In this document: piece by piece, positions 2,069 to 32,898 of the stretch
Layout of the letters: each line of letters begins with the position of its first letter
Numbering within the stretch: position 1 is the stretch's first letter
Assembly: GCA_041556855.1 (NCBI GenBank)
Contig: JBFFHS010000001.1
Location: forward strand, 9,423-73,422
Direction of reading: 5' to 3'
Source of the DNA: Gammaproteobacteria bacterium
Lineage (GTDB): Bacteria; Pseudomonadota; Gammaproteobacteria; Steroidobacterales; JBFFHS01
DNA length: 64,000 bases
Translations under genes and position numbers: made by a program
Notes under the pieces: generated by a model
The model's input: only the letters and a program-made list of their open reading frames with translations
What the model was told of the DNA's origin: nothing
Database searches by the model: none

Positions 2069-2497
2069 TCACTCTCCAGCAACCTTGAAGGGCACCGTGC
2101 CAAGTGCCACAGGCTCTTTGACCTCATCCTTGACGAGAGTTCCCTCACTCTCGTGAACCAGCTTACCGTTAACCTCGGCGCCAATGGCCATTTCAATCAG
2201 CTTATATTGGACGTTGCCAATCACCCGCGCCGTCTGCCCCAACTCGACTCGCTCGCTGACAACCACGTCGCCCTTGACCGTCCCGTTGAGCAGCAGATGG
2301 GTCACCGTGACGCCCCCCTCCACGGTGCCCGTCTCGCTGATGCTGAGCACCGCATTGGCATCGTTCAGCGCCCTGACGTTGCCTTTCACGAAGCCGTCCA
2401 CGTGGGCGCCCCCCGTGAATTGAATGTCACCGTGGACGCAGGTGTCGCTGCCGACCAGCGTGTTGATCGCCGCATGGGCATGTCGTCTCTTTCTCAT
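2069..2497 (-). CDS. Bactofilin (CcmA) family polymer-forming cytoskeletal protein
   Basis: 142 aa with repetitive beta-helix-like G-x-V/I-x-G segments ([17 protein letters not shown].. VEGGVTV.. [11 protein letters not shown].. RVIGNVQY) typical of DUF583/bactofilin. Confidence 0.8.
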
Positions 2498-2518
2498 CGG
2501 TTACGCCGGCCTCCCGCG

Positions 2519-3238
2519 TCAACCCGTCGTCACGGCCCAGGCAAAGCTCTGGGACACCCGTTTGGCGCCGCGACTTTTGGGCATGATCTCCAAGTCGACC
2601 CGATCAGGCGCAAAACCCTCGGGCAGCACCAGTTGGCGCTCCAAATCCTGAAAATAGCGGAACGAATAAGCCAACTCGCCGCTCTCGCCCTCCGCCACCA
2701 GTTCCGGCAAAGCCAGGCTCAGGTCCTGACCCGCCTGCTCACCATGTACGTTTAATTTTACAACACCGGACACACGTCGATCTTGCTTAATCGCCTGTAC
2801 CAGCACCAGGCGCATGACAATCGGCCCTGCGTTGGTGGAGATCAGCTCAAATTCTTGAATTTTCAGGCCTGCCACGCCGTCCGCCGGCGATACGATGCCC
2901 CGATAAAAGGCCAGTTCTTCTTCCTGGCTCTGAATGCTGGCCTGGAGCTCCGCCAGATTGGCCTCCACCTGGGCATAAGCCTCCCGGTCCACCTCCCGGG
3001 AGGTCTCCAGAACCGCGATCTGGCGCCGCAGCGCCTCATTGCTGCCTTCCAAGCTCTCCAGCTGCTGCGCCAGAGCGCGCTGCTCAGCCTCCGCATCCAG
3101 GCGTGAATAGCCCGCCTGATAACGCCCCAGTTCGTACAGCAAGAAGCCGACGCCGCCCAGGAACACCAGGGCAGACAGCGCCAACAGGAGCCGTTGCCAG
3201 GGCGCGGCAGGGGTGACGATTAATGGAGCGTTACCCAT
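2519..3238 (-). CDS. Membrane-anchored coiled-coil protein, function unknown
   Basis: 239 aa. It has an N-terminal TM helix (LLLALSALVFLGGVGFLLY) followed by a heptad-like A/E/L/Q-rich region. It lies directly upstream of the bactofilin on the same strand. Confidence 0.6.
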   Translation of the reverse strand: MGNAPLIVTPAAPWQRLLLALSALVFLGGVGFLLYELGRYQAGYSRLDAEAEQRALAQQLESLEGSNEALRRQIAVLETSREVDREAYAQVEANLAELQASIQSQEEELAFYRGIVSPADGVAGLKIQEFELISTNAGPIVMRLVLVQAIKQDRRVSGVVKLNVHGEQAGQDLSLALPELVAEGESGELAYSFRYFQDLERQLVLPEGFAPDRVDLEIMPKSRGAKRVSQSFAWAVTTG

Positions 3239-3326
3239 CGTGGCTGGAGCTTTCCGTTAGGGGCGGGCACCACGCATTTAAGTGAAAACCGGCCAAGGCG
3301 GCAAGGGTCCCGTTCACAACCGCGGT

Positions 3327-3890
3327 TCAGCTGGCGGCCTCTCGCGGCAGCGCCCGCTGCCAGCGTCGCGGCCACCATTCCGGTGGCGGTGGCGGCCCGT
3401 CCGCCGGAAAAGCCAGCGGTCCCAGCTCAAACAGCGCTTGCACGTAAACCTGCCGCTTGAAGTAGATGACCTCTTTGACCGGCCGCCAGTAGTCCACCCA
3501 CCGCCAGCGGTCGAATTCCGGCTCTGTTGTGGTATCCAGACGCACCCGCTCAGGATCCGCCAGCAGTTGCAGCAGGAACCAGCGCTGTTTCTGGCCAATA
3601 CATAACGGGCTTGAGTCCCGGCGCACGAAGCGCCTGGGCAGGCGATAGCGCAACCAGTCCTGAGTCTGCCCCATCACCTCAACGTCGCCGCTGGTGAGAC
3701 CGATCTCCTCCTCCAGTTCGCGAAACATGGCGGCCTCTATGGGCTCATTGGGCTGGACACCGCCCTGGGGGAATTGCCAGCCGGGCCGCCCGGCCCGACC
3801 CGCCAGCAGAACCCGTCCCATCCCGTTGGTCAGGATGATCCCGACGTTGGCGCGGTACCCCTCGCTGTCAATAAAATCCGCCATGGGCAT
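3327..3890 (-). CDS. rppH: RNA pyrophosphohydrolase RppH (NUDIX)
   Basis: IDSEGYRANVGIIL N-terminus and Nudix box (GGVQPNEPIEAAMFRELEEEIGL). The start could instead be the second ATG at 3884. Confidence 0.9.
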   Translation of the reverse strand: MPMADFIDSEGYRANVGIILTNGMGRVLLAGRAGRPGWQFPQGGVQPNEPIEAAMFRELEEEIGLTSGDVEVMGQTQDWLRYRLPRRFVRRDSSPLCIGQKQRWFLLQLLADPERVRLDTTTEPEFDRWRWVDYWRPVKEVIYFKRQVYVQALFELGPLAFPADGPPPPPEWWPRRWQRALPREAAS

Positions 3891-4180
3891 TCCCTGCTCG
3901 TTGCCCGCATTCTTTCATATCCCGGCAAAGCCGGGCAAAGCAGCCGATCCCGGCGCAGCGCACTCGCGCGGGCCAGTCAAGCTGGCCGGTTGAACCGTAT
4001 GCCGGGAAGCGGGTTCGAAGACCCCGTACCAGCCGTTCCAGCAGAGGCGGCACGTTCCCGTCTGCAGCAGCGTCAGTTCCCGCTGCTCGACGCGCTTGAG
4101 AGCGTGCTCGTTACGGGCAGCCTCGTCAGCCATGTCGGGGCGGCGCGGGTAAGGCGGGCTCACACCCGCGGCACGATCGC

Positions 4181-9593: not shown

Positions 9594-9785
9594 ATGCAGT
9601 ATCTGGACGAGCAGAGCCTCACCTGCCCTTACTGCTGGGAGACGATCGGCGTACTGCTGGACCTCTCTCAGCCGGAGCAGGTCTATATCGAAGATTGCGC
9701 TGTGTGTTGCCATCCCATTGAAATCCGAGTCGCGGCCGAGGACGGGATACTGACCCGCCTGAGCGGCACGCGAATCGATGCCTGA
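9594..9785 (+). CDS. CPxCG-motif cysteine-rich small protein
   Basis: MQYLDEQSLTCPYCWE...EDCAVCCHPIE carries two Cys pairs, as a zinc-ribbon-like protein would. ATG at 9594 lies just after the pdxH stop and is preceded by aagg. Confidence 0.7.
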   Translation: MQYLDEQSLTCPYCWETIGVLLDLSQPEQVYIEDCAVCCHPIEIRVAAEDGILTRLSGTRIDA

Positions 9786-12700
9786 TGACGCTGCGCCTGA
9801 GCATCTGCGGTGCCGGGCTGGGCATGGTGTTGAGCCTCCCCCTTGCCGCCGCGCAACAAGTCATCACCCTGGACAGCGGGACCAACATGGCGCTGGCGGT
9901 CAGCCCCGACGGGCAACGCCTGGTGGTGGATCTGCTCGGACAACTGTGGCGATTACCCGTGGGCGGCGGCGGCGCCGAGCCCCTGACGCCCCCGGAGCAT
10001 GAGGCACGCAATCCTCGCTTCGCGCCGGATGGCGAACATGTGATCTATCAGAGCTATGCCGGCGGTCAGTGGGACATCTGGCAGCTCAGCCTGGCGACGG
10101 GCGAACGCCGACCGCTCACCAGCGGTCCCTTCGATGACCGGGAACCCGACGTGGCGCCCGACGGTGCCACGGTGGTGTTTGCATCGGATCGCGGCGGCAA
10201 CTACGGCATCTGGACACTGGATCTGGACACGGACGAGCTCAGCCAGCTCACCAGCGGGGCCGGCGAAGCGTCCTTTCCCAGCTATTCTGCGGATGGGGCC
10301 AGCATCGTTTTTGTCAACCGCAGGGGGCCGCGCTGGTCGCTGGAACTGCTGGAGAATGGCGCGACCCGTACCCTGGTCACCTCCAGCAACCGCCTGCGGG
10401 CACCCAGCTGGCGCCCGAGCGGCGCGGTGATCGCCTACGTTGAGCATGGCGCCGGCTGGGCGGCGCTCAAGCTCCTGCTGCTGGGCTCCGACCCGGTGAC
10501 CAAGACTCTGACTCAGGACGAAGACGTATTCGGCTTTCGCCCGGCCTGGTTGTCGGTCGCGGAACTGATGTATACCGCGGACGGCGGCTTGTGGCGACGC
10601 AGCATCGACGCCAAGAGGCGTCAGGCTGTCCCGCTGTTCGCCGCCATTACCGTGAACCGGCCCGAATACAACCGACGGGTCAGGGATTTCGATAGCGGCG
10701 ACCCACAACCTTTGCTCGGCATCCGCGGTCCCAGCGTGTCGCCGGACGGCGAGACACTTGCGTTCACCGCCCTGGGCGACTTGTGGCTCGCTGAGGGCAG
10801 CGGCGCAGCGCGTCGCCTGACCCAGGATCCATTCCTGGATATCGATCCGGTATTCACGCCCGACGGCAACAGCCTGGTGTTCGCCAGCGACCGCGGCGGC
10901 GGCATGGAGATCTGGCAGCTGAATCTGGAAACGGGCGCTGCTCGCCAGCTGACACGCGGCGAAGGTTCGGCCTATCTGCCCAGCGTGGCGCCCGGTGGCG
11001 ATCAGGTGGCCTATCTGCGCGCCGGCCGGCTCGGCCTGTGGGGCCGCAGCGACGTCTATGTGGGCACTTTGGATGGCCGGTCGCGACTGCTGAAAGGGGC
11101 GCTGCCCAGCCCCAGCCGACCCAGTTGGGATCCCCAGGGCCAGCGCCTGCTGCTTTCGTCCCTGGCGCCCTTCTCCAATCGCTTCCGGGAAGGGCGCAAT
11201 CAGCTGCTCAGCATTCGGCTGGCCGATGGCGAGGCGCGCTGGCAACCGACGCTCGCCGCTGCCCCCCTGGGGACTCGCGGCCATGACGGGCCGGCGATGA
11301 CCACCGACGGCCGGCAGATCACCACCATCGCCAACGGCAGGTTATTTGTGGGGCCGCGCGGCGCACCCGAGGCACTGCTGGAAAACCTCAAGCCCCTCGG
11401 TCGCGGGTTGGCCAGCAGTCCAAGCTTTAGCGCCGATGGTCAGGTGCTGGCCCACCGCCAGGTCGATGCTATGCGGCGGCTGGATCTGGCTACGGGCGAA
11501 AGCGAACCGTGGCCCCTTCAGCTCACCTGGCAGCGACCGGCGCGGTCCGAGAAATACGTCATTCAGGCGGGGCGGCTATTCGACGGGATCGGCAACCGCT
11601 ACCGACGGCACATGGACATTCATGTGGATGGCCGCCGCATCAGCGCCGTTGCGGCGCGGGGAACCCTGCCGAACCCCGGTCGCGTCATCGATGCCAGCGA
11701 CCTGACCGTCATCCCTGGCCTGATCGACAGTCATGCCCATCAATCTGCGCTGGCAGGCGAGCGCCAGGGCCGGCGCTGGCTGGCTTTTGGCGTCACCAGC
11801 GTGCGGGAACCCGGCGGCGATCCCTATGACGCGCTGGAGCGGAAAGAAGCCTGGGCCAGCGGCCAGCGCCTGGGACCGCGGCTGTTTTTAACCGGACATC
11901 TGCTGGACGGGCCACGCGTGTATTACGGTCAAGCAGCCTCCATCGCAGATCGCGACCGGCTGGTTCAGGAACTTGACCGCGCCAGGCGACTCGGTTTCGA
12001 CCTGGTCAAGACCTACGTGCGACTGCCGGACGAACTGCAACGGGAGGCCATTCGTCTAGCCCATGAGATCGGCATTCCCCTATCTTCCCATGAGGTCTAC
12101 CCGGCAGCCCTGTTTGGTGCCGACGCGGTCGAACATCTCGGCGCCACATCGCGGCGCAGCTTCAATCCCAAGGTCTCGCCGCTGCAGCGTTCATACTCTG
12201 ACCTGGATCAGATACTGGCGGCCGCCGGCATGGTGTTTACACCGACCCTGGCTCTGAACGGCGGCTTCAGCCTGACCGTGGCGGACCACCCGGAACTGCT
12301 GCAAGACCCGGCGTATTTGGCCCTGTTCTCGCCCGCTGAGCGGCGCGGCCTGACCGGTTTCCTGGGGTTCTTCGGCTCGGGTCCGCCGCTCAAGCAGCGC
12401 ATGAGCCAACTTGGCGCCACTGCGGCCCGGCTGGTGCGCAGCGGCGCTCGACTCACCGCCGGGACGGATGCTCCCTTTATCCCGTATGGACTGGGCCTCC
12501 ACGTGGAGTTGCAGGTGTTGCGGGCCAGCGGGCTGAGTGCCGACCAGGTGCTGCGCTTGGCCACCGCGGAAGCCGCCCTGGCGCTGGGCGCCCATGGCGA
12601 TCTGGGCACCGTTGAAGCTGGCCGCCTGGCTGATCTGGTGGTCCTGGATGGCGATCCGCTCCAGGATATCAACGACACGCTGCGTATCAGGGCCGTTGTC

Positions 12701-12805
12701 AGCGACGGGCGCTGGCTGAGCCGCGAAAGCCTGCTGGTGACACCTGACCTGGAGACGACCCGATATGCCCCGCCAGCGCGGGGAGCAACGGTTGCGCAAC
12801 GTTAA
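9785..12805 (+). CDS. Secreted TolB-like (PD40/WD40 beta-propeller repeats) protein fused to an amidohydrolase domain
   Basis: 1006 aa. It has a signal-like N-terminus, multiple PD40-type repeats (P.F.PDG..V.Y/F.S.R.GG...IW), and a C-terminal metal-dependent hydrolase motif (IPGLIDSHAH...GTDAP). The start overlaps the upstream stop (TGATG). Confidence 0.8.
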   Translation: MTLRLSICGAGLGMVLSLPLAAAQQVITLDSGTNMALAVSPDGQRLVVDLLGQLWRLPVGGGGAEPLTPPEHEARNPRFAPDGEHVIYQSYAGGQWDIWQLSLATGERRPLTSGPFDDREPDVAPDGATVVFASDRGGNYGIWTLDLDTDELSQLTSGAGEASFPSYSADGASIVFVNRRGPRWSLELLENGATRTLVTSSNRLRAPSWRPSGAVIAYVEHGAGWAALKLLLLGSDPVTKTLTQDEDVFGFRPAWLSVAELMYTADGGLWRRSIDAKRRQAVPLFAAITVNRPEYNRRVRDFDSGDPQPLLGIRGPSVSPDGETLAFTALGDLWLAEGSGAARRLTQDPFLDIDPVFTPDGNSLVFASDRGGGMEIWQLNLETGAARQLTRGEGSAYLPSVAPGGDQVAYLRAGRLGLWGRSDVYVGTLDGRSRLLKGALPSPSRPSWDPQGQRLLLSSLAPFSNRFREGRNQLLSIRLADGEARWQPTLAAAPLGTRGHDGPAMTTDGRQITTIANGRLFVGPRGAPEALLENLKPLGRGLASSPSFSADGQVLAHRQVDAMRRLDLATGESEPWPLQLTWQRPARSEKYVIQAGRLFDGIGNRYRRHMDIHVDGRRISAVAARGTLPNPGRVIDASDLTVIPGLIDSHAHQSALAGERQGRRWLAFGVTSVREPGGDPYDALERKEAWASGQRLGPRLFLTGHLLDGPRVYYGQAASIADRDRLVQELDRARRLGFDLVKTYVRLPDELQREAIRLAHEIGIPLSSHEVYPAALFGADAVEHLGATSRRSFNPKVSPLQRSYSDLDQILAAAGMVFTPTLALNGGFSLTVADHPELLQDPAYLALFSPAERRGLTGFLGFFGSGPPLKQRMSQLGATAARLVRSGARLTAGTDAPFIPYGLGLHVELQVLRASGLSADQVLRLATAEAALALGAHGDLGTVEAGRLADLVVLDGDPLQDINDTLRIRAVVSDGRWLSRESLLVTPDLETTRYAPPARGATVAQR

Positions 12806-12857
12806 GAAACAGTAAGTTATGTAGATATTATGACAAATGTTGTAATAAAACCCCGCT

Positions 12858-12879
12858 AACCGAAATGTCGGTTTTTTTT
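12858..12879 (+). terminator. Intrinsic terminator downstream of the amidohydrolase gene
   Basis: Hairpin aaccga-aatg-tcggtt followed by a T7 run, with an A-run upstream. Confidence 0.55.
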
Positions 12880-12956
12880 ACAAGACTGTGTCTAAATCTC
12901 GTCCAAGACCGGAGATAGCATTCTCAACGTATTGAAAAAAAAGAACTTAACTGTTT

Positions 12957-12972
12957 TGGCACGGGACTTGCT
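12957..12972 (+). promoter_or_regulatory. Sigma-54 (RpoN) -24/-12 promoter
   Basis: TGGCACGGGACTTGCT matches the consensus TGGCACG-N4-TTGCW with correct GG/GC spacing. It lies in an intergenic AT-rich region with no CDS downstream before a terminator. Confidence 0.6.
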
Positions 12973-12982
12973 TAGTAGTATC

Positions 12983-13265
12983 TACCCCTGAGTGGGTAGT
13001 TATTGAGTGCGCAAACTGCAGAAAGGTATGCTCATCGCAACACCTTTTTGTTAAATTAGAAAGACAAGAACAAGAATAAGAAATAACAACAAGAAGAAGA
13101 GACCAAGACCTAAGGCTGTTACAACAACAAAAATCGGTTGCGAGGATTGGACAAAAACAAAAACTGACAGCCTCAAGACCAGCAGCCAGGCCGCATACTT
13201 GAAACCGTAAACTCCGATAAGAAAAAAGACCTGACCCGACGCCCACCGCGTCGGGTTTTCTTTTT
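12983..13265 (+). ncRNA. Candidate sigma-54-dependent A-rich sRNA (CrcZ-like Hfq/Crc sponge architecture)
   Basis: The predicted TSS is about 12 nt after the -12 GC. There is a 5' hairpin (ctaccc/gggtag, 12982-12999). Four AAN-triplet clusters follow: 13066-13099 reads AAG AAC AAG AAT AAG AAA t AAC AAC AAG AAG AAG; the others are 13123-13134, 13153-13164 and 13219-13227. The unit ends in a 9-bp GC hairpin plus U-tract. No credible ORF is present. Confidence 0.45.
13234..13265 (+). terminator. Strong intrinsic terminator
   Basis: acccgacgc-ccacc-gcgtcgggt (9-bp stem) followed directly by TTTTCTTTTT. Confidence 0.75.
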
Positions 13266-13360
13266 CTGGCAACCGTTCCCGCAACTGTGACTTGCTTCCG
13301 GCCATTGGCTGCCGCTAGCTGTTTGACTACAGCAGGGCCATTAAATTCCGTGAAGCTGTT

Positions 13361-14161
13361 GTGTTGCGCCGTCTGAGAATGCTGCTGCTGCTCTATGTGC
13401 TCTTGTTCATCGCCGTCGGCAACTGGCTAGCGCGCGTTCGCGCGACTGACTGGGATGAACCTTTATGGGTGGATATCTACCCCATCAACGGCGACGGCAG
13501 TGCTGCTGCCCAACGACACATTGAGCGGCTGCGCGACCAGGACTTCGATGCGGTAGAACAGTTTCTGAAACGTCAGGCCGCCGGCTACAGTGTCATGGTG
13601 AATCCACCCGCCGAGCTGAAGCTGGCACCGGCAGTGCACGAATTGCCACCCAGCTTGACCGCTACCGCGGGCATCTGGGAATCGCTGGTGTGGAGTCTGA
13701 AGCTGCGCTGGTGGGCCAAACTGGTCGAGTGGAATCTCGATCGGCCCAGTCCGGATATCCAGGTGTTCGCGATCTACTACGATGACGAGACTCACGTCAG
13801 CCTGGATCGTTCCGCGGCGCTGGAAAAGGGACGCGTGGCCGTCGCCCACCTGTTCGCCGATCGGCGCATGCGAGGCCCGAACCAGGTCGTGTTGACCCAT
13901 GAGCTGCTGCACACTCTCGGCGCCACGGACAAGTATCAACCGGGTACCAACCTGCCGCTGTTCCCGGAGGGCTACGGCGAGCCCAACGCGCAGCCGCTGT
14001 ATCCGCAGCGACGGGCCGAGCTCATGGGGGGGCGCATCGCTGTAACGGCGGACTATGCGGAAATTCCGCCTGACCTGGGGCAGGTCGTCGTCGGGCCACT
14101 GACGGCTGCCGAGATCGGTTGGCTCACACGCGACAAACTACGGTCCGTCGCTCAACCCTGA
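13361..14161 (+). CDS. Membrane-anchored hypothetical protein with an HExxH motif (putative metallopeptidase-like)
   Basis: 266 aa with an N-terminal TM helix (LLLLYVLLFIAVGNWL) and the motif HELLHTLGATDKY. GTG start at 13361; an alternative ATG is at 13379. Confidence 0.6.
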   Translation: MLRRLRMLLLLYVLLFIAVGNWLARVRATDWDEPLWVDIYPINGDGSAAAQRHIERLRDQDFDAVEQFLKRQAAGYSVMVNPPAELKLAPAVHELPPSLTATAGIWESLVWSLKLRWWAKLVEWNLDRPSPDIQVFAIYYDDETHVSLDRSAALEKGRVAVAHLFADRRMRGPNQVVLTHELLHTLGATDKYQPGTNLPLFPEGYGEPNAQPLYPQRRAELMGGRIAVTADYAEIPPDLGQVVVGPLTAAEIGWLTRDKLRSVAQP

Positions 14162-17050: not shown

Positions 17051-17524
17051 TCATGCCGCGCGGCGGAGCGCGCTCACCATGGCGGTGAGCTGTTCGAGAT
17101 CGGGGATCAGAGGGTACTCGTTGATCATCCGGATACGGCAGATGACCGGCTGCTGATCATCCCAGGTGCGGTCAGAATCCGGCGACAGGACGTCCGGATT
17201 GACTCGCACCAGTTGCGGGAAGCCCTGTGTGAGGATACCGAAATAGCCGTCAGCGCCCATGGCATGGAAGACCACGATGCGGGTCCGATGGCGCGACTCC
17301 GGCACCGCCTTACCGATGGTTGCTTCGAAGGACACCAGCGGCAATTCCCGGCCGTCCCAGTTCACGACCCCCAGGAACCACTCTGGCGCGCCCGTGGCCG
17401 CGGCCCTGGGTTCAGTGAACCCGACAACTTCCGCTACACAGACCCGCGGCACCAGCAGGCGTTCCTCGAATAAGGGAATCAATAGGCTGTAGAGCTCTGT
17501 CGGGGTGTCATTCACCGTCGTCAC
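17051..17524 (-). CDS. chpC: CheW-like coupling protein (ChpC position)
   Basis: 157-aa CheW-domain-like sequence. It overlaps the chpA 3' end by 17 nt. Confidence 0.75.
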   Translation of the reverse strand: MTTVNDTPTELYSLLIPLFEERLLVPRVCVAEVVGFTEPRAAATGAPEWFLGVVNWDGRELPLVSFEATIGKAVPESRHRTRIVVFHAMGADGYFGILTQGFPQLVRVNPDVLSPDSDRTWDDQQPVICRIRMINEYPLIPDLEQLTAMVSALRRAA

Positions 17525-20500
17525 CGATGAATGGCTGCAGCGCTCGGATCAGCTGATTTTCCTGATAAGGCTTGACCAGATAGTCGTTCACGCCGATCTC
17601 GATGGCGCGCGCACGATGCTTCTCACTGGAACGAGAAGTAATCATGACAATGGGAGTGTCCTTGACCCGCGGGTCGTTACGTACATGGGTGGCAAACTGA
17701 TACCCATCCATGCGCGGCATCTCGATATCCAGAAGAATGACGTCCGGCTCATGATCCTGGAGCACCGTTATGGCATCCAGGCCATCTTTGGCGGTGAGCA
17801 CCCGGATGCCATGACGTTCCAGAAGGCGCTCGGTTACGCGGCGCACGGTTATCGAATCATCCACCACCAGAGCCGTGGGCTGGGATTGGATCACCGGTGC
17901 TGCGGGCTCGGGTTTCGGACCGCTATCGGCGCGACGCTGGCGCACCAGGGCGCCCATGTCGAGAATTACGACAATGCGCCCATCGCCGAGAATGGTGGCA
18001 CCGGACACGCCGGGGATACCCGCGATCTGCGGTCCCAGGGTCTTGACCACGATTTCACGGCTACCCTCAACTTGATCGGTCAACAGGGCCGTTGAGCTGT
18101 CGCCAGCACGCACCAGCACCAGGGAGACGGAACTTTCATCCTCGGGCAGCGCTGAGGGTCCGGCATCCACAAAAGTGCCCAGATGCTGAATGCGATAGCT
18201 CACGTCGCCATATTCCAGACGCGGGTCGTCCTCCGTGAGCCGATCCAACAGCTGGTCTTTGGGCAACCGGGTAATGCCTTCCACCGTGGGCAGCGGCAGC
18301 GCAAAGGTCTCCTCGCCAACCTGGACAATCAGCGCCTGGGTGATCGCCAGCGTATAGGGCAAACGGATAGTAAAGCGGGTTCCCTGGCCGGGCTCTGAGG
18401 CAATCCGCAGCGAACCACCCAGCTTGGCCACCTGATCGTCCACCACGTCCAGCCCCACGCCGCGGCCGGCGGCCTGGGTTAACTCGCCGGCGGTGGTGAA
18501 GCCAGGCGCCAGAATCAACTCCATGGCATCCTCATCGGAGACCTGCTGGCCGGGCTCAAGCAAGCCGAGTTCCTGCGCCTTGGTCCGAATAGCGCGCAAA
18601 TCCAGACCTGCACCGTCATCGCTCACCTCGATCTGCACTTCGGAGCCCTCGCGCTGCAGGGCGATCACGATTCGGCCCCGGTCCGGCTTACCAGCCGCCT
18701 GGCGCTGCTCCGGCGACTCGATGCCGTGCACCACTGCGTTCCGCAGCAGATGCTCGAAGGGTGGCAACATCTTTTCCAGCACCTGGCGGTCCAACTCGCC
18801 AGCAGCTCCTTCGACCACCAGCTCCGCCTGCTTACCGCTCTCCTGGGCCGCTTGGCGCACAATCCGCTCCAGGCGCGAGACATGCCGCTTGAAGGGCACC
18901 ATGCGCGTCTGCATGAGCCCATCCTGCAGTTCAGTCGTCACGCGGCCCTGCTGCGTGAGCAGCGTTTCCGCGTCGGTGTTCAGCGTGCGCAGCAGATCAT
19001 TGATGCTGGCCACGTCGCTGACGGACTCCGCCAGCGCCCGGGACAACTGCTGAATGGTGGAATAACGGTCCAGCTCGAGAGGGTCGAAGTCCCGGTCGTC
19101 ACCCAGGTCATGCTGATGGCGATACAGAATCTGCGCCTCCGTCTCGGCCTCCAGCTTGCGCAGTTGCTCCTTCAAGCGGAGCACCGTCTGAGACAGTTCC
19201 ACGAGATTGAAGTCAATGGACTGAATCTGCTGCTTCAAGCGCGACTGAAAAATCGAAATCTCGCCAGCGCTGTTGAGAAGCCCGTCCAACAGCTCCGCAT
19301 CGACGCGGGCCACCTCGGCCCGCTCCAGCGCGGACGCCGGTGACGGCGGCGCGGGCACCGCTTCGTCGGCCGGTTCGACCTCCGGCACCGCGACGTTTAA
19401 AGGCTCGGCCGGCTCAGAATAGATCCCGGTGACTTCTTCCTCCTCTGGCCAACTCTCATCAGCTGCTTCTGGGCCGGCCCCCGCAAAGCTCTGCTCATCG
19501 CGCGCCCCAATGATGCTGTCCGATGGTGCCTCGCTGGAGGCTGTCGCGACAGGGATTAGATCCGGGCCAGTCGGTGGCGAGCCGGCCAGGCCACCAACCT
19601 CGGCCGCAGCCTCTTCCGGCTCCACGCCGGCTGCGCCCGCCTCAGCCAGCACATTGATGCGCCGAATCAAGTCGGTGGATTCCCGCAAACCGGCGCCACC
19701 CACCACGGCATCGCGCATGTGATGCAGCTCATCCAAGGCTGACTGGATCGTGACAATGGCCCCATCCCCAGGCTGCACCGAACCCTCGGCCCAACCCACC
19801 AGCAGATTCTCCAGTGCGTGGCTCAAATTGCCCATGGGGGTGAGCCCCGCCATGCGAGCGCCGCCCTTCAGCGTGTGGGTCAGGCGCTGCAACTCCACAA
19901 CCCGCTCCCGATTGCCATGGTCAGCCGCGAGGACGCGCAGAGCGTCCTCCGCCGCCTCCAGCAGCTCGGCTGCCTCAGCAGTAAAGATCGCCGCGATCTC
20001 AGAATCGAACTCAAAAAACTGTTCGGCCGCCGGCTCGCCGATGACAGGTTCGGCAGCGGACGGCACCACCAGTGCGCTGACCTCCGACACGGGCTCCACG
20101 GCTAAGCCGTCGCTGCTGACGGGTTCTTCGGCCTGAGCCAAAGGCTCCCCAGTCCCCGGCTGCGAGGACTCCGCCGCCACGGGTTGCTGCGCCGCCGCTA
20201 GCGTATCCAGTTCACCCAGCAGGGCGCGGTAGTCATCCTGGTAGGGCTGCCCGCTCTCCAGCGCATCCGCCATGTTTCCCAGTGCCTGAGCGATGGCCTG
20301 AATAACGCCGCGGGCGGTCCTATCCAGGCTGCCCCCCGCCTTGAAAAGTTGGCTAACGAAGCGGTTCAGGGGCGCCGCCAGCTCTATTGCGGGCTCGAAG
20401 GACGCCATATTGGCGCTGCCCGCCAGGGTGTGGCAAACCCGGTGCAGATCGTCGGTCACCCGCGTGCCTGCCTGATCCGGCGCGGCGTCGAGAAAATTCC

Positions 20501-22916
20501 GAATCGCGGCTACGTGGCCGCGGGTTTCCTTGATGAAAATTTCCTGCAGGACCGGATCCATGTCCGTGACCAGCCCCGGCGCGGGCGGCGCTGCGGCTGG
20601 TGTCTCCAGCGCCGGGACACGCAGGGAGCCGCTGGTCATGCTGGCGGCCTCGGGATCCCCCTCCGCGAAGGCCTCGGCCTGCTTCATCAGGAACTGCACG
20701 TCCAAACGCGGTGCTCGGCCGATCTCCAACTGCTCCAGCAACTCAGGCAACGCCTCTACGGCGCGCTGCAAGAAGTCTGCTATGGCATCGCTGCGCTCCA
20801 GAGTCTGGTTAATCAGCCGATTAAGCAGATTCTCGATGCTCCACGAAAACTCTCCGATGAGCTGAGCGCCGACCATCCTCCCGCTGCCTTTCAATGTGTG
20901 AAAGCTGCGGCGGACGGTGATGAGCGCCTCGGAGTCATCCGGATGCTGCAACCACTGGGGAAAGTGCTTGCGAATACTCGTCAACTCTTCCTGGGCTTCC
21001 TCGATGAACACCTCCACCAGCTCCGGATCAACCCGCTCGGCATGCTCAGACATGACTGCGGGCACTGGTGCGCTGACCGCCGCCTCGGGCTCCGTGGCGG
21101 GCTGGCCAAGCTCCGCCTCGACCACCGGCGCCGCGGTCTTTTCTCGTTCCGCGGCAGCCTCGACGGGTGCCTCGTCAGCCTCGGGTGCCGCCTCCGCTGC
21201 TGACTCAACAGCAGACGGCACCGCCACCGGCTGGGCTTCCAAGACCTGCAGACAGGTCTCGGCGTTGTCCAGCATGTACCAGGGATCGGCCCGGCCTGCT
21301 TTCAGGGTCTCCATGTAGTACTCAACGCTGACAATGGCGTCGGCAAGGCGGTCCAGCTTGTCCGGCTTGAGCGTCGGCTGCCCCGGCGCCAAGCGGGCAT
21401 GGATGACGGCGCCGATTCGCTCGATAACTTTGACAGCGCGAGTCTTACCCAGCATCAGCAAGCCCGCCGTCACGCCCCGCAGCTGAGGAGCGACTCGATC
21501 CAGTGCCTCAGAGTCACCGCGCTGGCTCACCAGCTGAGTGACCGCTTCCTTGATCCTGGCAAGATTGACGGCACACTCGCGCAATACGGCTTCGGCAACG
21601 TGGCGATATTCTGCGTCCGTCTCGGGGGCAGCTGCCTTTTCGCCCTCCAGCGGCATAATGACCCGCACCAGCTGCTGATCAAGCTCATCTTCGACGTTCA
21701 GCAGGGTGGCGGCCATCTTGATCAGAGTGCCCTCATCAGCGGCCTCTTGATCTGCAATGAAAGCGGCCAACTCTTTGATCTCGCCCTGAATGCGTTCCCG
21801 CAGGTCGCCCAGCCCCAAAACTCCCAGGGTGTCACTGATCTTCTTCAGCATGTCCAGCTGAGGCTTCAAATCTTCGGCATCGGACATGCCGGTGCGAACA
21901 AAGATATCCAGGGCATCCTTGACGTTACTGAGGTCTTCCTTGATGGCAGCGGCCACCGTGCGCATGAGCTTGACGCTGGGACCGGCCAACCCTTCCCGGG
22001 CCTCCGCCAGCTCGTGGTCGCCGGGCAACAGATTGACCAGCCCGAAGCTGTTGCGAATCTCCTTGATACGATCGGTCTCCACCTTGGAGCGTCCGACGTA
22101 GTACAACAGATGATTGAGTAGATCCCGCGGCGCCGCCTTAGCTGCATCAGCCTCACCCCGGTCTATGGTGATCTTGAGGAAACGGTCGGCCTGTCCAATC
22201 AAGCGCTGCAACGCCACGCTGGACTCCACCCCACCTTTCTGCAGCGCCTCCAGCACCCCAGAAAGCACGTACCACAGCTGATAGATGGCGTCGGCCGTGG
22301 CCACGCCCTCCAGCGCCCGGCTGACGGTATACAGCCGATTCCAATTGGCGTGCAGATCCCTGCCCTTGATCCAGCCAAGCAGAGCCATCTGAAAGCTGGG
22401 CCGAAGCTTGCTTGCCAGGGCGGTGAAGTTCTCTGCGGCAGGCCCGGCCGCCTCTGGCGCCGCTGGCCCGGCGCCCTGGCCGGGTCCAACGTTGAGCAGC
22501 AGCAACGTACCCTCTGACATCAGCGGCTCACCGCGGATGGCGCGCAGATCGTTCAATAGGGGCAACAGCACTAAGGCAATGTCGCGCCCCCCGCTGGCGA
22601 CCCGATCCAGGTACGCGGGCAACTGCACCATCGCCCTGCCAAGCGCCTCGACACTCTGCAGCACGACATCCTCATCCGTAAGCTCGGTAAGATAGTCGCA
22701 GGCCTGCTCCATTTCTTCGGCCAAGAGCGCAGCGCCGTGCACTTCGACGATCTTCAACGCGCCGCGAACCAGATGCAGTTGCCGGGCACAGTCCGCCAGC
22801 GCACCCTTGCCAACGCGCCCGTCAATATAGTTCTCAAGACCCTGGCGCGCCTGGTCCAGCGCAGTGGTCAGCTCCTTATTGACGAGCTCGAGAGAGTTTA
22901 CCGCCAGCTCGGTCAT
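17508..22916 (-). CDS. chpA: ChpA-type hybrid CheA histidine kinase (multiple Hpt domains, HATPase, CheW and C-terminal receiver)
   Basis: 1802 aa. There are three canonical Hpt motifs (HTLKGSGRMVGA, HTLAGSANMASF, HTLKGGARMAGL) plus degenerate N-terminal Hpt/FimL-like repeats. Also present are a G1/G2 ATPase region (DDGAGLD..GRGVGLDVV), a CheW-like region and a REC domain (VVDDSITVRR..DIEMPRMDG..KP). Confidence 0.9.
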   Translation of the reverse strand: MTELAVNSLELVNKELTTALDQARQGLENYIDGRVGKGALADCARQLHLVRGALKIVEVHGAALLAEEMEQACDYLTELTDEDVVLQSVEALGRAMVQLPAYLDRVASGGRDIALVLLPLLNDLRAIRGEPLMSEGTLLLLNVGPGQGAGPAAPEAAGPAAENFTALASKLRPSFQMALLGWIKGRDLHANWNRLYTVSRALEGVATADAIYQLWYVLSGVLEALQKGGVESSVALQRLIGQADRFLKITIDRGEADAAKAAPRDLLNHLLYYVGRSKVETDRIKEIRNSFGLVNLLPGDHELAEAREGLAGPSVKLMRTVAAAIKEDLSNVKDALDIFVRTGMSDAEDLKPQLDMLKKISDTLGVLGLGDLRERIQGEIKELAAFIADQEAADEGTLIKMAATLLNVEDELDQQLVRVIMPLEGEKAAAPETDAEYRHVAEAVLRECAVNLARIKEAVTQLVSQRGDSEALDRVAPQLRGVTAGLLMLGKTRAVKVIERIGAVIHARLAPGQPTLKPDKLDRLADAIVSVEYYMETLKAGRADPWYMLDNAETCLQVLEAQPVAVPSAVESAAEAAPEADEAPVEAAAEREKTAAPVVEAELGQPATEPEAAVSAPVPAVMSEHAERVDPELVEVFIEEAQEELTSIRKHFPQWLQHPDDSEALITVRRSFHTLKGSGRMVGAQLIGEFSWSIENLLNRLINQTLERSDAIADFLQRAVEALPELLEQLEIGRAPRLDVQFLMKQAEAFAEGDPEAASMTSGSLRVPALETPAAAPPAPGLVTDMDPVLQEIFIKETRGHVAAIRNFLDAAPDQAGTRVTDDLHRVCHTLAGSANMASFEPAIELAAPLNRFVSQLFKAGGSLDRTARGVIQAIAQALGNMADALESGQPYQDDYRALLGELDTLAAAQQPVAAESSQPGTGEPLAQAEEPVSSDGLAVEPVSEVSALVVPSAAEPVIGEPAAEQFFEFDSEIAAIFTAEAAELLEAAEDALRVLAADHGNRERVVELQRLTHTLKGGARMAGLTPMGNLSHALENLLVGWAEGSVQPGDGAIVTIQSALDELHHMRDAVVGGAGLRESTDLIRRINVLAEAGAAGVEPEEAAAEVGGLAGSPPTGPDLIPVATASSEAPSDSIIGARDEQSFAGAGPEAADESWPEEEEVTGIYSEPAEPLNVAVPEVEPADEAVPAPPSPASALERAEVARVDAELLDGLLNSAGEISIFQSRLKQQIQSIDFNLVELSQTVLRLKEQLRKLEAETEAQILYRHQHDLGDDRDFDPLELDRYSTIQQLSRALAESVSDVASINDLLRTLNTDAETLLTQQGRVTTELQDGLMQTRMVPFKRHVSRLERIVRQAAQESGKQAELVVEGAAGELDRQVLEKMLPPFEHLLRNAVVHGIESPEQRQAAGKPDRGRIVIALQREGSEVQIEVSDDGAGLDLRAIRTKAQELGLLEPGQQVSDEDAMELILAPGFTTAGELTQAAGRGVGLDVVDDQVAKLGGSLRIASEPGQGTRFTIRLPYTLAITQALIVQVGEETFALPLPTVEGITRLPKDQLLDRLTEDDPRLEYGDVSYRIQHLGTFVDAGPSALPEDESSVSLVLVRAGDSSTALLTDQVEGSREIVVKTLGPQIAGIPGVSGATILGDGRIVVILDMGALVRQRRADSGPKPEPAAPVIQSQPTALVVDDSITVRRVTERLLERHGIRVLTAKDGLDAITVLQDHEPDVILLDIEMPRMDGYQFATHVRNDPRVKDTPIVMITSRSSEKHRARAIEIGVNDYLVKPYQENQLIRALQPFIGDDGE

Positions 22917-22953: not shown

Positions 22954-25044
22954 TCAGCCTGTTTGACGTTGCTGCTGGTGCGGTTCCAGGGACGAGGAGA
23001 CGTCCGGCGTCGTCCTGGCCATCGCCGCCTGTGCATCTGCATCGCCCTCATCGGCAACGCCGCCGCTGCTTTCACCCGGCAACAGGAAACCACTCACCGA
23101 CTTACGCAGCTGGGAAGCGAGCTCCGACAGCTTGCTGATCGCGCTGGAGGTCGCGGTGGTGCTCTGGGCCGTTTTATTTCCGATTCCGCGCAGCACCTGC
23201 ATGTTGCGGGTAATGTCAGCGGCGGCTTCAGCCTGCTCCCGCGCCGATCCGGAGATGTTCTGTACTAAAGTAGCAAACTGATTCGAGACCTGATCGATCT
23301 CTTCCAAAGCTGCTCCGGCATTCTCGGCCAGCAGCGCTCCGCCCACCACATCCGTAGTGCTGCGCTCCATGGATACCACGGCTTCGTTAGTATCCGATTG
23401 AATTGTGCTGACCAGCACCTCGATCTGCTTGGTGGCATTAGCGGAGCGCTCAGCGAGCCGCTGCACCTCGTCGGCGACCACAGCAAATCCCCGGCCCGCC
23501 TCACCGGCCATGGACGCCTGAATCGAAGCATTCAGCGCCAGGATGTTGGTTTGTTCAGCAATATCATTAATAAGCTCGACGATATTACCAATCTCCTGGG
23601 AGCTCTCGCCGAGCCGCTTAATGCGCTTCGACGTCTCTTGAATAGTCTCGCGAATCGTATTCATGCCCTCGATGGTGCGCCGAACTGCTTCGCCACCCTT
23701 GCTGGCCACGTCCACCGAATGGCGCGCCACGTCCGCGCAACGCTCTGCGTTACCCGACACCTCCTCGATAGAGATGGCCATCTGGGCGATGGACTCCGAT
23801 GCGGCGGCCAGCTGCTTCAACTGCAGCTCGCTGGAACGCACCAGATGCTGGGATGTCGCCTCGGTCTGCTTGGAGGCCCCATCCAATAGAATGGAGGAGT
23901 CGTTGATGGTGGCAACCAGATCCCGCAGCGCGCCGATCGCGTAATTTATCGAGTCGGCAATAGCGCCGGTAATGTCCTCGGTGACCGTAGCCTCAACGGT
24001 GAGATCACCATCAGCCAGCGGCTGCAGCTCATCCAGCAGGCGCAGGATGGCCTGCTGATTACGCTCGTTTTGCGCAGCATGCTGTTCAGCCGCATGACGG
24101 TAATCGCGCGCCCGGTGATAGGCCAGCATCATCGTCAGCAAGACCAGCACGGCGCCGCCCAGCAGCGCCAGTCCCAGGGAAGAATCCAATCCGAAGGGTA
24201 ACGCTGACTGGCTCGGGCGCACCTCCTGTCGATAGCGGGCGAATATGCTGGCGGCGGCTTGATCCAGCTGGTCGCGAGCCCCAGCGGCGGCAACCAGGGC
24301 CCCTTCGGCGCGCGCGACCCGATCCAGAGCATCACGCAGCTGCACATGGATTTCACGGGCCCGCGCCAAGCCGCCGGCCCGAGCATCTTCATTCAACGGC
24401 GCAACGCCCAGCCCGGTCTGCTCGCCAGCCAGCGCCCGCAGGATCTGATCAATAAAGCCCTCAGCGTCCGCGGTCCGACGCGTCAAAAGCGCCGCATCGC
24501 TCGCCTGGGGAAGACCTCCCAGGTCCTGCTGGATCTGCTGAACACTGAGCTCAAAGCGATCCATAGCGTTCTGATTTCTGGCCAACGTGCCAGCGGGCAT
24601 GGCCGCAGCCAGGTTGGCGGCCGCCGCCAGCAGATCCGGAGCCAACCGCTGCGCCTCGGTGACCGCTGCATAGGCCTGTCCCAACGCGTCCCGCTGGCTG
24701 ACAAAGATTTGACGGGCTTCGGAGAGGCTCTGCCACGCCTGGCCATCAGCCAGGACCTGCCGAACCGATTCGGCGGCGGTTGCGTCCCGCAGGACGATGC
24801 GGCGCAGCTCGTTCGCTTCCTGTGCGGCGGCAACCAGCTCGTCCAGAGCCACCTGATCGCCCGCCGCAGCGGCCGCGCCGTTAGCACGCGCGGCCTGAGC
24901 CAGCGCCACAAGCCGACTGAGCTGCGCTTCGCCGCCGCCGGCGCCGCCGGTCGACCAGATCACCGCGCCCGCGACCAACAGCAAAGCCAGCAGCAATCCC
25001 GCCAAAGTGGGGATGACTTGCATCCAACGACTTGTCTTGAGCAT
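22954..25044 (-). CDS. pilJ: PilJ-type methyl-accepting chemotaxis protein
   Basis: 696 aa with an N-terminal TM helix, a large periplasmic region, HAMP, and a highly conserved MCP signalling hairpin (EQTNILALNASIQASMAGEAGRGFAVVADEVQRLAERS). Confidence 0.9.
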   Translation of the reverse strand: MLKTSRWMQVIPTLAGLLLALLLVAGAVIWSTGGAGGGEAQLSRLVALAQAARANGAAAAAGDQVALDELVAAAQEANELRRIVLRDATAAESVRQVLADGQAWQSLSEARQIFVSQRDALGQAYAAVTEAQRLAPDLLAAAANLAAAMPAGTLARNQNAMDRFELSVQQIQQDLGGLPQASDAALLTRRTADAEGFIDQILRALAGEQTGLGVAPLNEDARAGGLARAREIHVQLRDALDRVARAEGALVAAAGARDQLDQAAASIFARYRQEVRPSQSALPFGLDSSLGLALLGGAVLVLLTMMLAYHRARDYRHAAEQHAAQNERNQQAILRLLDELQPLADGDLTVEATVTEDITGAIADSINYAIGALRDLVATINDSSILLDGASKQTEATSQHLVRSSELQLKQLAAASESIAQMAISIEEVSGNAERCADVARHSVDVASKGGEAVRRTIEGMNTIRETIQETSKRIKRLGESSQEIGNIVELINDIAEQTNILALNASIQASMAGEAGRGFAVVADEVQRLAERSANATKQIEVLVSTIQSDTNEAVVSMERSTTDVVGGALLAENAGAALEEIDQVSNQFATLVQNISGSAREQAEAAADITRNMQVLRGIGNKTAQSTTATSSAISKLSELASQLRKSVSGFLLPGESSGGVADEGDADAQAAMARTTPDVSSSLEPHQQQRQTG

Positions 25045-30630: not shown

Positions 30631-31686
30631 CTAGCCGAAGTTGATCTTGGCCTCCAGGTTGGTTCTCGAATCGGCATTGGAAAGCGCCTCCTCCATGCCG
30701 ATGTGGCCGCCCCGATAGAGCTCGAACAGAGCATCGTCGAAAGTCTGCACCCCGGGCTCCTTGGTGTCCTTGAAGGCTTCTTTAAGGGCACTGATGTCAC
30801 CCTTTAGAATCAGCTCGGAGATATAAGGTGTATTCAGCATCACCTCGACGGCGGCCACCCGCTTACCGTCCCTACCCCGCACCAGCCGCTGAGAAATCAC
30901 GGCCCGCAGATACTGGGACATATCCATGAAAACCTGCGGGTGCTGCTCGGTTGGATACATGTTGATGACCCGATCCAGAGTCTCGGGCGCATTATTAGCG
31001 TGCAGCGTGGCGACGGCCAGATGGCCCGTGCCTGCAAGATCGATGGCGGCCTGCATGGAGTCCGCATCCCGAATCTCACCGATCAAAATGACATCCGGCG
31101 CCTCGCGCATACTGCTGCGGAGCGCTCTTGCGTAGGATTTAGTGTCCAACCCCACCTCACGCTGATTGATGATGCACTTCTTGTTGGTGTGCAGGAACTC
31201 GATGGGATCCTCGATGGTGAGTATATGGCTTGAAGAATGCTCATTGCGATAGTCGATCATCGCCGCCTGAGTGGTTGACTTGCCGCTGCCCGTGGCGCCC
31301 ACCATCAGGATCAGACCGCGGCGCAGCATGATCAGATCGTTAAGAATCTCCGGCATGCCCAGCTCTTCCAGACTCGGAATCTGGGTAGAGATGTAGCGGA
31401 GCACCATGGCAACATTGCCGCGCTGATGAAAGATATTGACGCGAAACCGACCAAGCCCTGGTTCCGAAATGGCGAAATCAATTTCCAACTCCCGGGTAAA
31501 GGTTTCCAGTTGGTCCTCATTCATGAGTTCAAGCGCTGCCTGACGGACCATTTTGGGCGTCAGCTGAAGCTTGTTGACGGGCATGATCTTGCCGTCGATC
31601 TTTATCATCACCGGGGCTTGAGTGGTGAAGAAGAGGTCAGACGCCCCCTTATCCACCATCAGTTTGAATAGTGGTCTGACGTTCAT
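30631..31686 (-). CDS. PilT/PilU-family type IV pilus ATPase, third paralog (PilU-like)
   Basis: 351 aa with Walker A GATGSGKST, Walker B DVILIGEIRD and His box GHLAVATLHAN. It lacks the PilT AIRNLIRE motif (it has YISELILKG instead). Confidence 0.85.
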   Translation of the reverse strand: MNVRPLFKLMVDKGASDLFFTTQAPVMIKIDGKIMPVNKLQLTPKMVRQAALELMNEDQLETFTRELEIDFAISEPGLGRFRVNIFHQRGNVAMVLRYISTQIPSLEELGMPEILNDLIMLRRGLILMVGATGSGKSTTQAAMIDYRNEHSSSHILTIEDPIEFLHTNKKCIINQREVGLDTKSYARALRSSMREAPDVILIGEIRDADSMQAAIDLAGTGHLAVATLHANNAPETLDRVINMYPTEQHPQVFMDMSQYLRAVISQRLVRGRDGKRVAAVEVMLNTPYISELILKGDISALKEAFKDTKEPGVQTFDDALFELYRGGHIGMEEALSNADSRTNLEAKINFG

Positions 31687-31706
31687 GGCTTGCCACTCAC
31701 TACTGG

Positions 31707-32870: not shown

Positions 32871-32898
32871 GAGCTAAGCCTCCAACATCAAGCGCGGG

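Follow-up and report, generated by a model that had tools for sequence, protein, structure and literature searches.

What is encoded by an AT-rich interval of about 0.55 kb that separates two protein-coding genes in an otherwise GC-rich stretch of gammaproteobacterial DNA? The whole stretch analyzed, 64,000 nucleotides in length, is referred to here as the window, and all positions are given in its coordinates. The intergenic interval (12806-13360) extends from the end of one coding sequence at 12805 to the start of the next at 13361, and its G+C content (0.38-0.40 at 12800-13200, versus 0.60-0.72 on either side) agrees with a preliminary description of the locus, made from the sequence alone, as an AT-rich island encoding a regulatory RNA. 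Comparison with related loci makes it very probable that the island contains a real and widely conserved small RNA (sRNA) gene of a new family, normally dependent on sigma-54 (RpoN). The flanking genes are:

9785-12805, + strand: upstream coding sequence (PD40 plus amidohydrolase)
13361-14161, + strand: downstream coding sequence (266 aa, HExxH-like, without a Pfam family)

Both coding sequences, like the RNA, lie on the + strand and therefore are not convergent, contrary to the preliminary description, which was correct in recognizing a context other than that of crcZ (the neighbors are the PD40 plus amidohydrolase gene and the gene for the 266-aa protein, not cbrB and pcnB). Genes for hfq, rpoN, or a GAFTGA-type enhancer-binding protein were found neither in the 64-kb window nor in the fetched related loci. 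Pfam annotation of 40 window ORFs revealed housekeeping genes only and no EEP/Crc-like protein, and a blastn search of the AT-rich island against a plasmid collection returned no match. Two ORFs antisense to the RNA (12947-13246 and 13051-13305) had been dismissed as artifacts; they are present, and neither their frame nor their sequence is conserved in relatives. A conserved small-protein ORF was also considered and rejected, as the relatives share no ORF with a common frame, start, and stop, and their frames differ.

Distribution and unity of the family

Homologous loci were fetched via the downstream 266-aa protein, with one genome per species, yielding 80 loci. In 37 of these, a body rich in A-R-N (ARN) triplets lies within 320 nt downstream of a sigma-54 box, and four more contained the RNA but no box. 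Overall, about 120 distinct copies came from 41 of the 80 species-level genomes and from 105 metagenome contigs. Relatives whose neighboring protein is 72-75% identical keep the element from end to end. The copies fall into three sequence clades: clade A, the type found in the window, occurs in uncultured Gammaproteobacteria of sediments and soils; clade B occurs in Woeseiaceae metagenome-assembled genomes; and clade C includes the cultured Lentisalinibacter sediminis C23 of the order Woeseiales (locus L006). For clade A, 119 instances were reduced to 92 distinct full-length sequences, which were aligned.

Regardless of clade, the element occupies the same strand and a common slot, downstream of the PD40-amidohydrolase gene and upstream of the 266-aa gene, in some cases with an extra gene inserted. 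Profile similarity between clades is weak but colinear (nhmmer E-values down to 8e-7). Judged by slot, strand, sigma-54 box, upstream motif, IHF-like sites, and profile similarity, clades A, B, and C form one family, and the predicted RNA gene recurs in more than 100 uncultured and cultured Woeseiaceae-type gammaproteobacteria. Searches against Rfam 15 (4227 families) gave no gathering-level match in the window and no match in four related loci, a sub-threshold hit to CrcZ being the only one when an E-value cutoff was applied, and a search of the accessible literature found no paper on Woeseia sRNAs, on such a CrcZ-like RNA, or on the motif sequences; the suggestion that the family may be undescribed is thus upheld.

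Promoter and upstream control region

Four DNA elements precede the predicted RNA:

12792-12819, + strand: distal upstream element TTGCGCA..AAACAG..GTTA, overlapping the last codons of the upstream coding sequence
12867-12882, no strand assigned: candidate enhancer (UAS) motif GTCGG-N6-TTACA, ending 74 nt upstream of the -24/-12 box
12922-12934, no strand assigned: IHF-like site TCTCAACGTATTG (WATCAANNNNTTR, 1 mismatch), in the interval from the candidate UAS to the promoter
12957-12972, + strand: sigma-54 (RpoN) -24/-12 promoter TGGCACGGGACTTGCT, with a predicted transcription start near 12983

The match to the RpoN consensus at 12957-12972, at first described as almost perfect, proves to be perfect and unique: TGGCACGGGACTTGCT is the sole TGGCAC-N5-TTGCW match on either strand of the 64 kb, where 0.07 would be expected from shuffles. 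Conservation of the promoter in related genomes had been proposed as a check, and the box is found at the same distance in 78 of the 92 distinct clade A copies and in all 30 clade B/C copies. Conversely, 37 of the 39 sigma-54 boxes in the 80 species-level loci belong to the RNA element, and the other two are weaker. Since about 12 of the 92 clade A copies (~13%) lack the sigma-54 box together with the upstream motif and keep the RNA, RpoN control appears to be the rule in this RNA family without being obligatory.

Upstream of the box, the pattern GTCG[GA]-N5-9-T[TA]ACA is present in 70 of 71 clade A and 25 of 30 clade B/C upstream regions (background 2% per 230 nt), and it ends 73-76 nt before the box in 69 of 71 and 24 of 30, respectively; in total, 95 of 101 copies have the motif, 93 of these 95 at that distance. 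IHF-like sites (at most 1 mismatch) occur in the interval between UAS and promoter in 21 of 71 clade A and 21 of 30 clade B/C copies (42/101), compared with a background of 1.8%. The candidate upstream site, the IHF-like site, and the -24/-12 box together have the layout of a classical enhancer-dependent sigma-54 promoter. The distal element at 12792-12819 has columns at least 95% conserved in 71 distinct sigma-54-type upstream regions, and it is also retained in family members without the sigma-54 promoter. In the window, the candidate UAS overlaps a terminator-like hairpin of the upstream gene. A reading of the upstream motif as a CbrB site was rejected: the CbrB subsites at crcZ are TGTTAC/GTAACA (PMC6296734), both of which are absent from 12785-12956, and the conserved motif is GTCGG-N6-TTACA.

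Extent and structure of the predicted RNA

Promoter and terminator delimit a predicted RNA with the following parts:

12983-13266, + strand: predicted sRNA, ~284 nt, 38% A, bounded by promoter and terminator
12983-12998, + strand: SL1, 5'-terminal hairpin UACCC-CUGAGU-GGGUA
13018-13051, + strand: SL2, two-tier hairpin, followed by the nearly invariant UUCUGUUAAAUU
13114-13187, + strand: SL3 domain, with basal helix GGCUG (13114-13118)/CAGCC (13183-13187)
13185-13220, + strand: invariant 36-nt segment GCCAGGCCGCAUACUUGAAACCGUAAACUCCGAUAA, a candidate seed or partner-binding site, partly unpaired
13233-13266, + strand: intrinsic terminator, a G+C-rich stem followed by UUUUCUUUUUC

The 284-nt transcript folds with a predicted energy of -70.4 kcal/mol (z = -4.06), lower than that of all 200 shuffles. 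The small hairpin anticipated at the predicted start, near 12983, is present at 12983-12998, and five of the six pairs of its helix (helix 1) show changes on both sides within the family. Helix 2, in SL2, comprises 12 pairs with 88.5% of cells paired and both-side changes at 4 pairs. The SL3 basal helix, whose pairs are invariant (92/92), encloses ARN block 3, a variable inner stem, and ARN block 4; all five pairs of the inner stem (helix 5) change on both sides. The GC-rich terminator hairpin of the preliminary description was likewise recovered, with a stem at 13233-13257 (10 pairs, 7 of them G-C) directly followed by TTCTTTTTCT; 99.9% of its cells are paired, and a G-C to A-U compensatory change is seen in the window's subclade.

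Across the 92-sequence alignment, 86.7% of cells are paired in the four-helix structure (SL1, SL2, SL3, and terminator), compared with 32-45% in slid controls, and 135 cells show double changes versus 57 +/- 8 in shuffles, with a concentration in SL1, SL2, and the inner SL3 stem. These counts used the structure of one family member, and so are biased towards that member, because RNAalifold on MAFFT alignments mis-drew the variable stems.

The 36-nt segment is identical at 35 of 36 positions in 14 copies found by synteny. A pattern scan gave 105 exact matches in metagenomes, among which the invariance of the 36-mer is circular because it was the criterion of their selection; this circularity does not extend to the statistics on promoter, ARN triplets, and structure. 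The segment shows no covariation and is absent from clades B and C, in which (Woeseiaceae) an invariant 5'-terminal GCCCAAGCGAA is single-stranded and lies outside any local helix.

ARN blocks

The purine-rich part of the RNA consists of five blocks:

13066-13083 and 13085-13102, + strand: ARN blocks 1 and 2, 6 + 6 A-R-N triplets with one U between them
13123-13134, + strand: ARN block 3, inside SL3
13153-13164, + strand: ARN block 4, inside SL3
13219-13227, + strand: ARN block 5 (AAGAAAAAA), just 5' of the terminator

The AAN-triplet blocks were found where the preliminary description had placed them, including the 6+5 triplets at 13066-13099, although five AAN/ARN blocks are counted here; 13066-13083 holds 6 triplets, and 13085-13099 holds 5 AAN triplets, which become 6 ARN triplets when the block is continued to 13102. 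The window RNA thereby has four (ARN)n>=4 runs and one with n=3, two of the runs being of full-hexamer size, and in every clade of the family the median is 3 runs of (ARN)>=4, with 16-19 triplets per RNA. The RNA contains 22 AAN triplets in runs of at least 3, compared with 3.2 +/- 2.8 in dinucleotide shuffles, a number reached in 0 of 2000 shuffles and not approached elsewhere in the window, on either strand, by any stretch of 284 nt. Predicted mean unpaired probabilities are 0.5-0.8 for ARN blocks 1 and 2 and 0.8-0.9 for the ARN loops of SL3.

Conservation of the AAN blocks, a further check that had been suggested, takes a specific form: the two A's of each triplet in the main blocks are invariant in 92 of 92 sequences and N varies, giving a three-nucleotide periodicity. 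The two main blocks are separated by a 1-nt indel across the family and are mutually out of frame. The AAnAAnAA pattern at the position of block 5 is also conserved across the family. The Hfq distal face discriminates at its A and R sites and shows no specificity at the third (PMC4063720), and ARN repeats are reported to be the Hfq motif in vivo (PMC4104026). Invariance of A-A with variation of N is exactly the selection pattern expected for A-R-N binding to the Hfq distal face, and the RNA probably binds Hfq through these blocks. A separate observation is that G is nearly fixed at three N positions (13074, 13080, and 13096; 84-90 of 92 sequences), for which Hfq alone gives no reason.

Comparison with known small RNAs

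The closest parallel is provided by CrcZ/CrcY/CrcX of Pseudomonas and Azotobacter (Rfam RF01675 CrcZ), which are sigma-54/CbrB-dependent sRNAs acting as decoys for Hfq (and Crc). Like CrcZ, the new element has (here at the level of sequence) a -24/-12 promoter of the sigma-54 type preceded by an activator motif and an IHF-like site, and it encodes a non-coding RNA of a few hundred nucleotides that ends at an intrinsic terminator. CrcZ itself is 407 nt in length and titrates Hfq by means of six (A-R-N)n>=4 repeats that bind the distal face of the protein (PMC4063720); the window RNA has four such blocks, predicted to be single-stranded, and the ARN positions are the most conserved feature across the new family. 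The differences are equally clear. The new RNA is shorter (184-286 nt versus 407 nt), lies between PD40-amidohydrolase and HExxH-like genes whereas CrcZ lies between cbrB and pcnB, has no enhancer-binding protein gene nearby, carries GTCGG-N6-TTACA upstream in place of the CbrB subsites TGTTAC/GTAACA, occurs in Woeseiales-type hosts, and contains invariant segments that are not A-rich. Membership of the CrcZ family (RF01675) was rejected: the search with the Rfam CrcZ model that had been suggested as a check scored 17.2 bits in the window (E = 0.09, gathering threshold 95), in the low-complexity stretch 13064-13120 only, where ARN blocks 1 and 2 produce the weak match, and found nothing in four related loci. 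The predicted RNA has the architecture of CrcZ, yet genomic context, activator motif, and covariance model all place it outside the CrcZ family.

The Class II Hfq-dependent sRNAs of enterobacteria (e.g., ChiX and MgrR) offer a second comparison, ChiX being built of an ARN motif, a U-tail, and a highly conserved short segment. The combination of an ARN motif for the distal face with a terminator U-tail for the proximal face (PMC6239178) is shared by the new RNA, as is the presence of a short, strongly conserved segment, a possible seed. Unlike ChiX and MgrR, however, the new RNA has far more ARN triplets than one hexamer holds, is about three times longer, is predicted to be sigma-54-dependent, and has a conserved segment that differs between clades. 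Other sigma-54-dependent sRNAs include Qrr1-5 (Vibrio), GlmY/GlmZ (enterobacteria), and NrsZ (Pseudomonas), whose -24/-12 promoters are accompanied by an IHF site and, upstream, by a site at which a dedicated two-component enhancer-binding protein acts, and none of which, to our knowledge, is built from ARN repeats. Their models, so far as they are among the 4227 Rfam 15 families, gave no match in the window or its relatives.

Proposed function and alternative explanations

The ARN blocks are predicted to be unpaired, obey the A-R-N rule, and form several runs as in CrcZ, so the architecture fits an Hfq decoy. In the mechanism proposed, RNA polymerase with sigma-54 would initiate near 12983 when an enhancer-binding protein activates from GTCGG-N6-TTACA ~100 nt upstream, probably helped by IHF bending, and transcription would end at the intrinsic terminator (13233-13266). 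At the level of sequence, four to five (A-R-N)n blocks lie in predicted single-stranded regions framed by the 5' hairpin and two further helices, and a U-rich 3' tail comes after the terminator stem; the blocks would bind Hfq by its distal face, each RNA being long enough in ARN sequence for roughly three hexamers, and the tail could bind the proximal face. Because its ARN blocks would bind Hfq, the RNA would compete with ARN-containing mRNAs for Hfq once the activator is switched on, and Hfq-dependent translational repression would be relieved, as it is by CrcZ in Pseudomonas. The lineage-specific invariant segments (here 13185-13220) probably add a second, specific interaction, with either a base-pairing target or a partner protein. 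A sigma-54-activated, Hfq-binding, trans-acting sRNA that works mainly by Hfq titration, as in CrcZ, is the reading we tentatively prefer, with somewhat less than even confidence. The invariant segments, the absence of the sigma-54 promoter from about 12 of 92 clade A copies, and an upstream motif unlike that of CbrB count against a pure "sponge" reading.

We know of no experimental demonstration of Hfq sequestration by an ARN-repeat RNA outside Pseudomonas and Azotobacter, in which the mechanism is linked to CbrAB and Crc. Woeseiaceae are among the most abundant marine-sediment bacteria. If the decoy reading were confirmed, the new RNA would represent a second, unrelated family with CrcZ-like architecture, and the principle of Hfq sequestration would be more general; the family is widespread in sediment and soil Woeseiaceae-type bacteria and would open a way into the global post-transcriptional control of organisms known mostly from metagenomes. 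CbrAB has been reported as exclusive to Pseudomonadaceae (PMC6296734). A more far-reaching and somewhat unlikely extension is that Woeseiaceae and their soil relatives possess an Hfq-titration switch analogous to that of Pseudomonas catabolite repression, assembled from unrelated parts (another sigma-54 activator, working via GTCGG-N6-TTACA, and a decoy RNA with no relation to CrcZ), in which the 36-nt module and the fixed G's at exposed N positions would dock a Crc-like partner or a specific target, so that the CrcZ principle would have arisen convergently outside Pseudomonadaceae, possibly in a decoy-plus-seed form. The decoy hypothesis is directly testable because there is at least one cultured carrier (Lentisalinibacter sediminis) and the parts of the element (promoter, upstream motif, ARN blocks, and invariant segment) are sharply defined; a new Rfam family can be started from the alignment.

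The main rival to titration, which we consider somewhat unlikely, is that the RNA acts by base pairing as a Class II Hfq-dependent sRNA like ChiX or MgrR, in which ARN repeats and U-tail are only Hfq anchors and the invariant segment (13185-13220 in clade A, which includes an anti-SD-like ACUCC; the 5' GCCCAAGCGAA in clades B and C) pairs with specific mRNAs, perhaps at their ribosome-binding sites. Such segments, not being A-rich, are typical of seeds and are not needed by the decoy model: the 36 nt do not vary among copies that were found independently and are partly accessible, clades B and C carry an invariant 5' end outside local helices, and Class II sRNAs have the same combination of an ARN motif with a terminator U-tail (PMC6239178). 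Yet one ARN site suffices for such an sRNA, whereas 3-6 runs with 16-19 triplets and two adjacent full-hexamer blocks are found here, and the putative seed is wholly different between clades that have the ARN blocks, the promoter, and the UAS in common. A duplex scan of the 36-nt segment against 226 candidate translation-start regions did no better than shuffled motifs (best duplex -36.3, versus -33.1 +/- 2.0 with a best of -36.7), although a 64-kb window makes this a very weak test. What the clades share is the ARN blocks, and decoy and Class II base-pairing modes could coexist in one RNA. Another RNA-binding protein, either instead of Hfq or in addition to it (e.g., a Crc-like co-factor), might read the 36-nt segment and the conserved G's, with the RNA as its decoy or scaffold. 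The near-fixed G's at 13074, 13080, and 13096, where Hfq should not discriminate, and a long invariant segment without covariation would suit such a partner, and in Pseudomonas Crc is reported to join Hfq on ARN RNA (PMC9890229 and PMC8266614). That explanation is nevertheless improbable, as the 36-nt segment is clade-specific and there is no candidate protein, none with RNA-binding function being encoded in the neighborhood of the RNA gene (the 64-kb window).

Readings in which the island acts in cis or encodes a protein fare worse than any trans-acting RNA. A leader or attenuator of the downstream 266-aa gene, with the sigma-54 promoter driving that gene and the terminator as a point of regulated read-through, would account for the position of the element on the strand of that gene and always upstream of its homologues, as well as for the gap of only ~95 nt between the terminator and the start codon. 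We regard this as very unlikely, however, as many Woeseiaceae have a gene between the RNA and the 266-aa gene (e.g., a 509-aa amidase in L007), the element is missing from about half of the loci with the 266-aa gene, the terminator is strong and nearly invariant, and the folds showed no alternative anti-terminator pairing. Even less credible is a reading of the island as a gene for a small protein rich in Lys and Asn, or as AT-rich spacer DNA that has no function and owes its motifs to chance. Variation at the third base could make AAN triplets resemble codons, and long stop-free frames exist on both strands, but the N changes exchange Lys and Asn freely, the main AAN blocks are out of frame with each other and have a 1-nt indel between them family-wide, and the + strand ORFs of relatives differ in frame, length, and sequence, while the RNA region of the window contains no + strand start-to-stop ORF of at least 25 aa. 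Chance is excluded because the element is conserved in ~120 copies.

Conservation upstream of the sRNA and loss of its promoter in one subclade

The DNA upstream of the predicted A-rich sRNA (12983-13266, + strand) contains a conserved element that lies apart from the sigma-54 promoter:

12792-12819, TTGCGCA..AAACAG..GTTA DNA element, conserved at the equivalent position in related loci

This element precedes the -24 box by ~165-195 nt. In the window, the final codons of the preceding coding sequence overlap it, and it is retained also by copies of the sRNA that have no sigma-54 promoter. Inspection of the region upstream of the sRNA demonstrated that such copies form one subclade of 12 loci (L001, L003, L009, L077, L102, L111, L112, L143, L169, L177, L184, and L187), in which both the -24/-12 box and the candidate activator motif GTCGG..TTACA are gone but the RNA body is retained, a pattern which suggests a promoter swap in this subclade. 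At two further loci (L178 and L188), TGGCAC is retained and the -12 element is weakened (TTAC). Within the window, a hairpin followed by a T-run (12858-12882) looks like the terminator of the preceding gene in a scan and overlaps GTCGG-N6-TTACA, a motif conserved family-wide; the terminator signal and the motif signal may be superimposed on the same stretch.

Near-fixed positions within the AAN triplets

Amongst the 92 distinct full-length homologues of the window's clade, three 'N' positions (13074, 13080, and 13096), which belong to alternate AAN triplets, are near-fixed as G (84-90 of the 92 sequences), and the remaining N positions vary freely. The A-R-N rule for binding to the Hfq distal face does not by itself explain these near-fixed G's.

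Genes downstream of the sRNA

Downstream of the sRNA there is consistently the following gene:

13361-14161, + strand, gene for a protein of 266 aa whose N-terminus is hydrophobic and which carries an HExxH-like motif (HELLHTLGATDKY)

A search of the protein collection recovered 4634 homologues of this protein, and no Pfam or NCBIfam family was found for it. In L007, an inserted ORF of 509 aa (2453-3982, + strand), whose product appears amidase-like from a reading of its translation, separates the 266-aa gene from the sRNA. Comparable Woeseiaceae loci show such an insertion too, and at all of these loci the sRNA therefore lies ~1.8 kb upstream of the 266-aa gene. In the window and its close relatives, the 266-aa gene is followed by a gene for a cob(I)alamin adenosyltransferase. 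A cobalamin riboswitch was detected in Lentisalinibacter sediminis (L006 6521-6766, + strand; 76.5 bits, E = 2.4e-17), ~1.8 kb downstream of the homologue of the 266-aa gene.

Elsewhere in the window, three tandem genes (30631-33942, - strand) encode T2SSE/PilT-type ATPases, and a 1802-aa ORF (17508-22916, - strand) adjoins a methyl-accepting chemotaxis protein gene (22954-25044).
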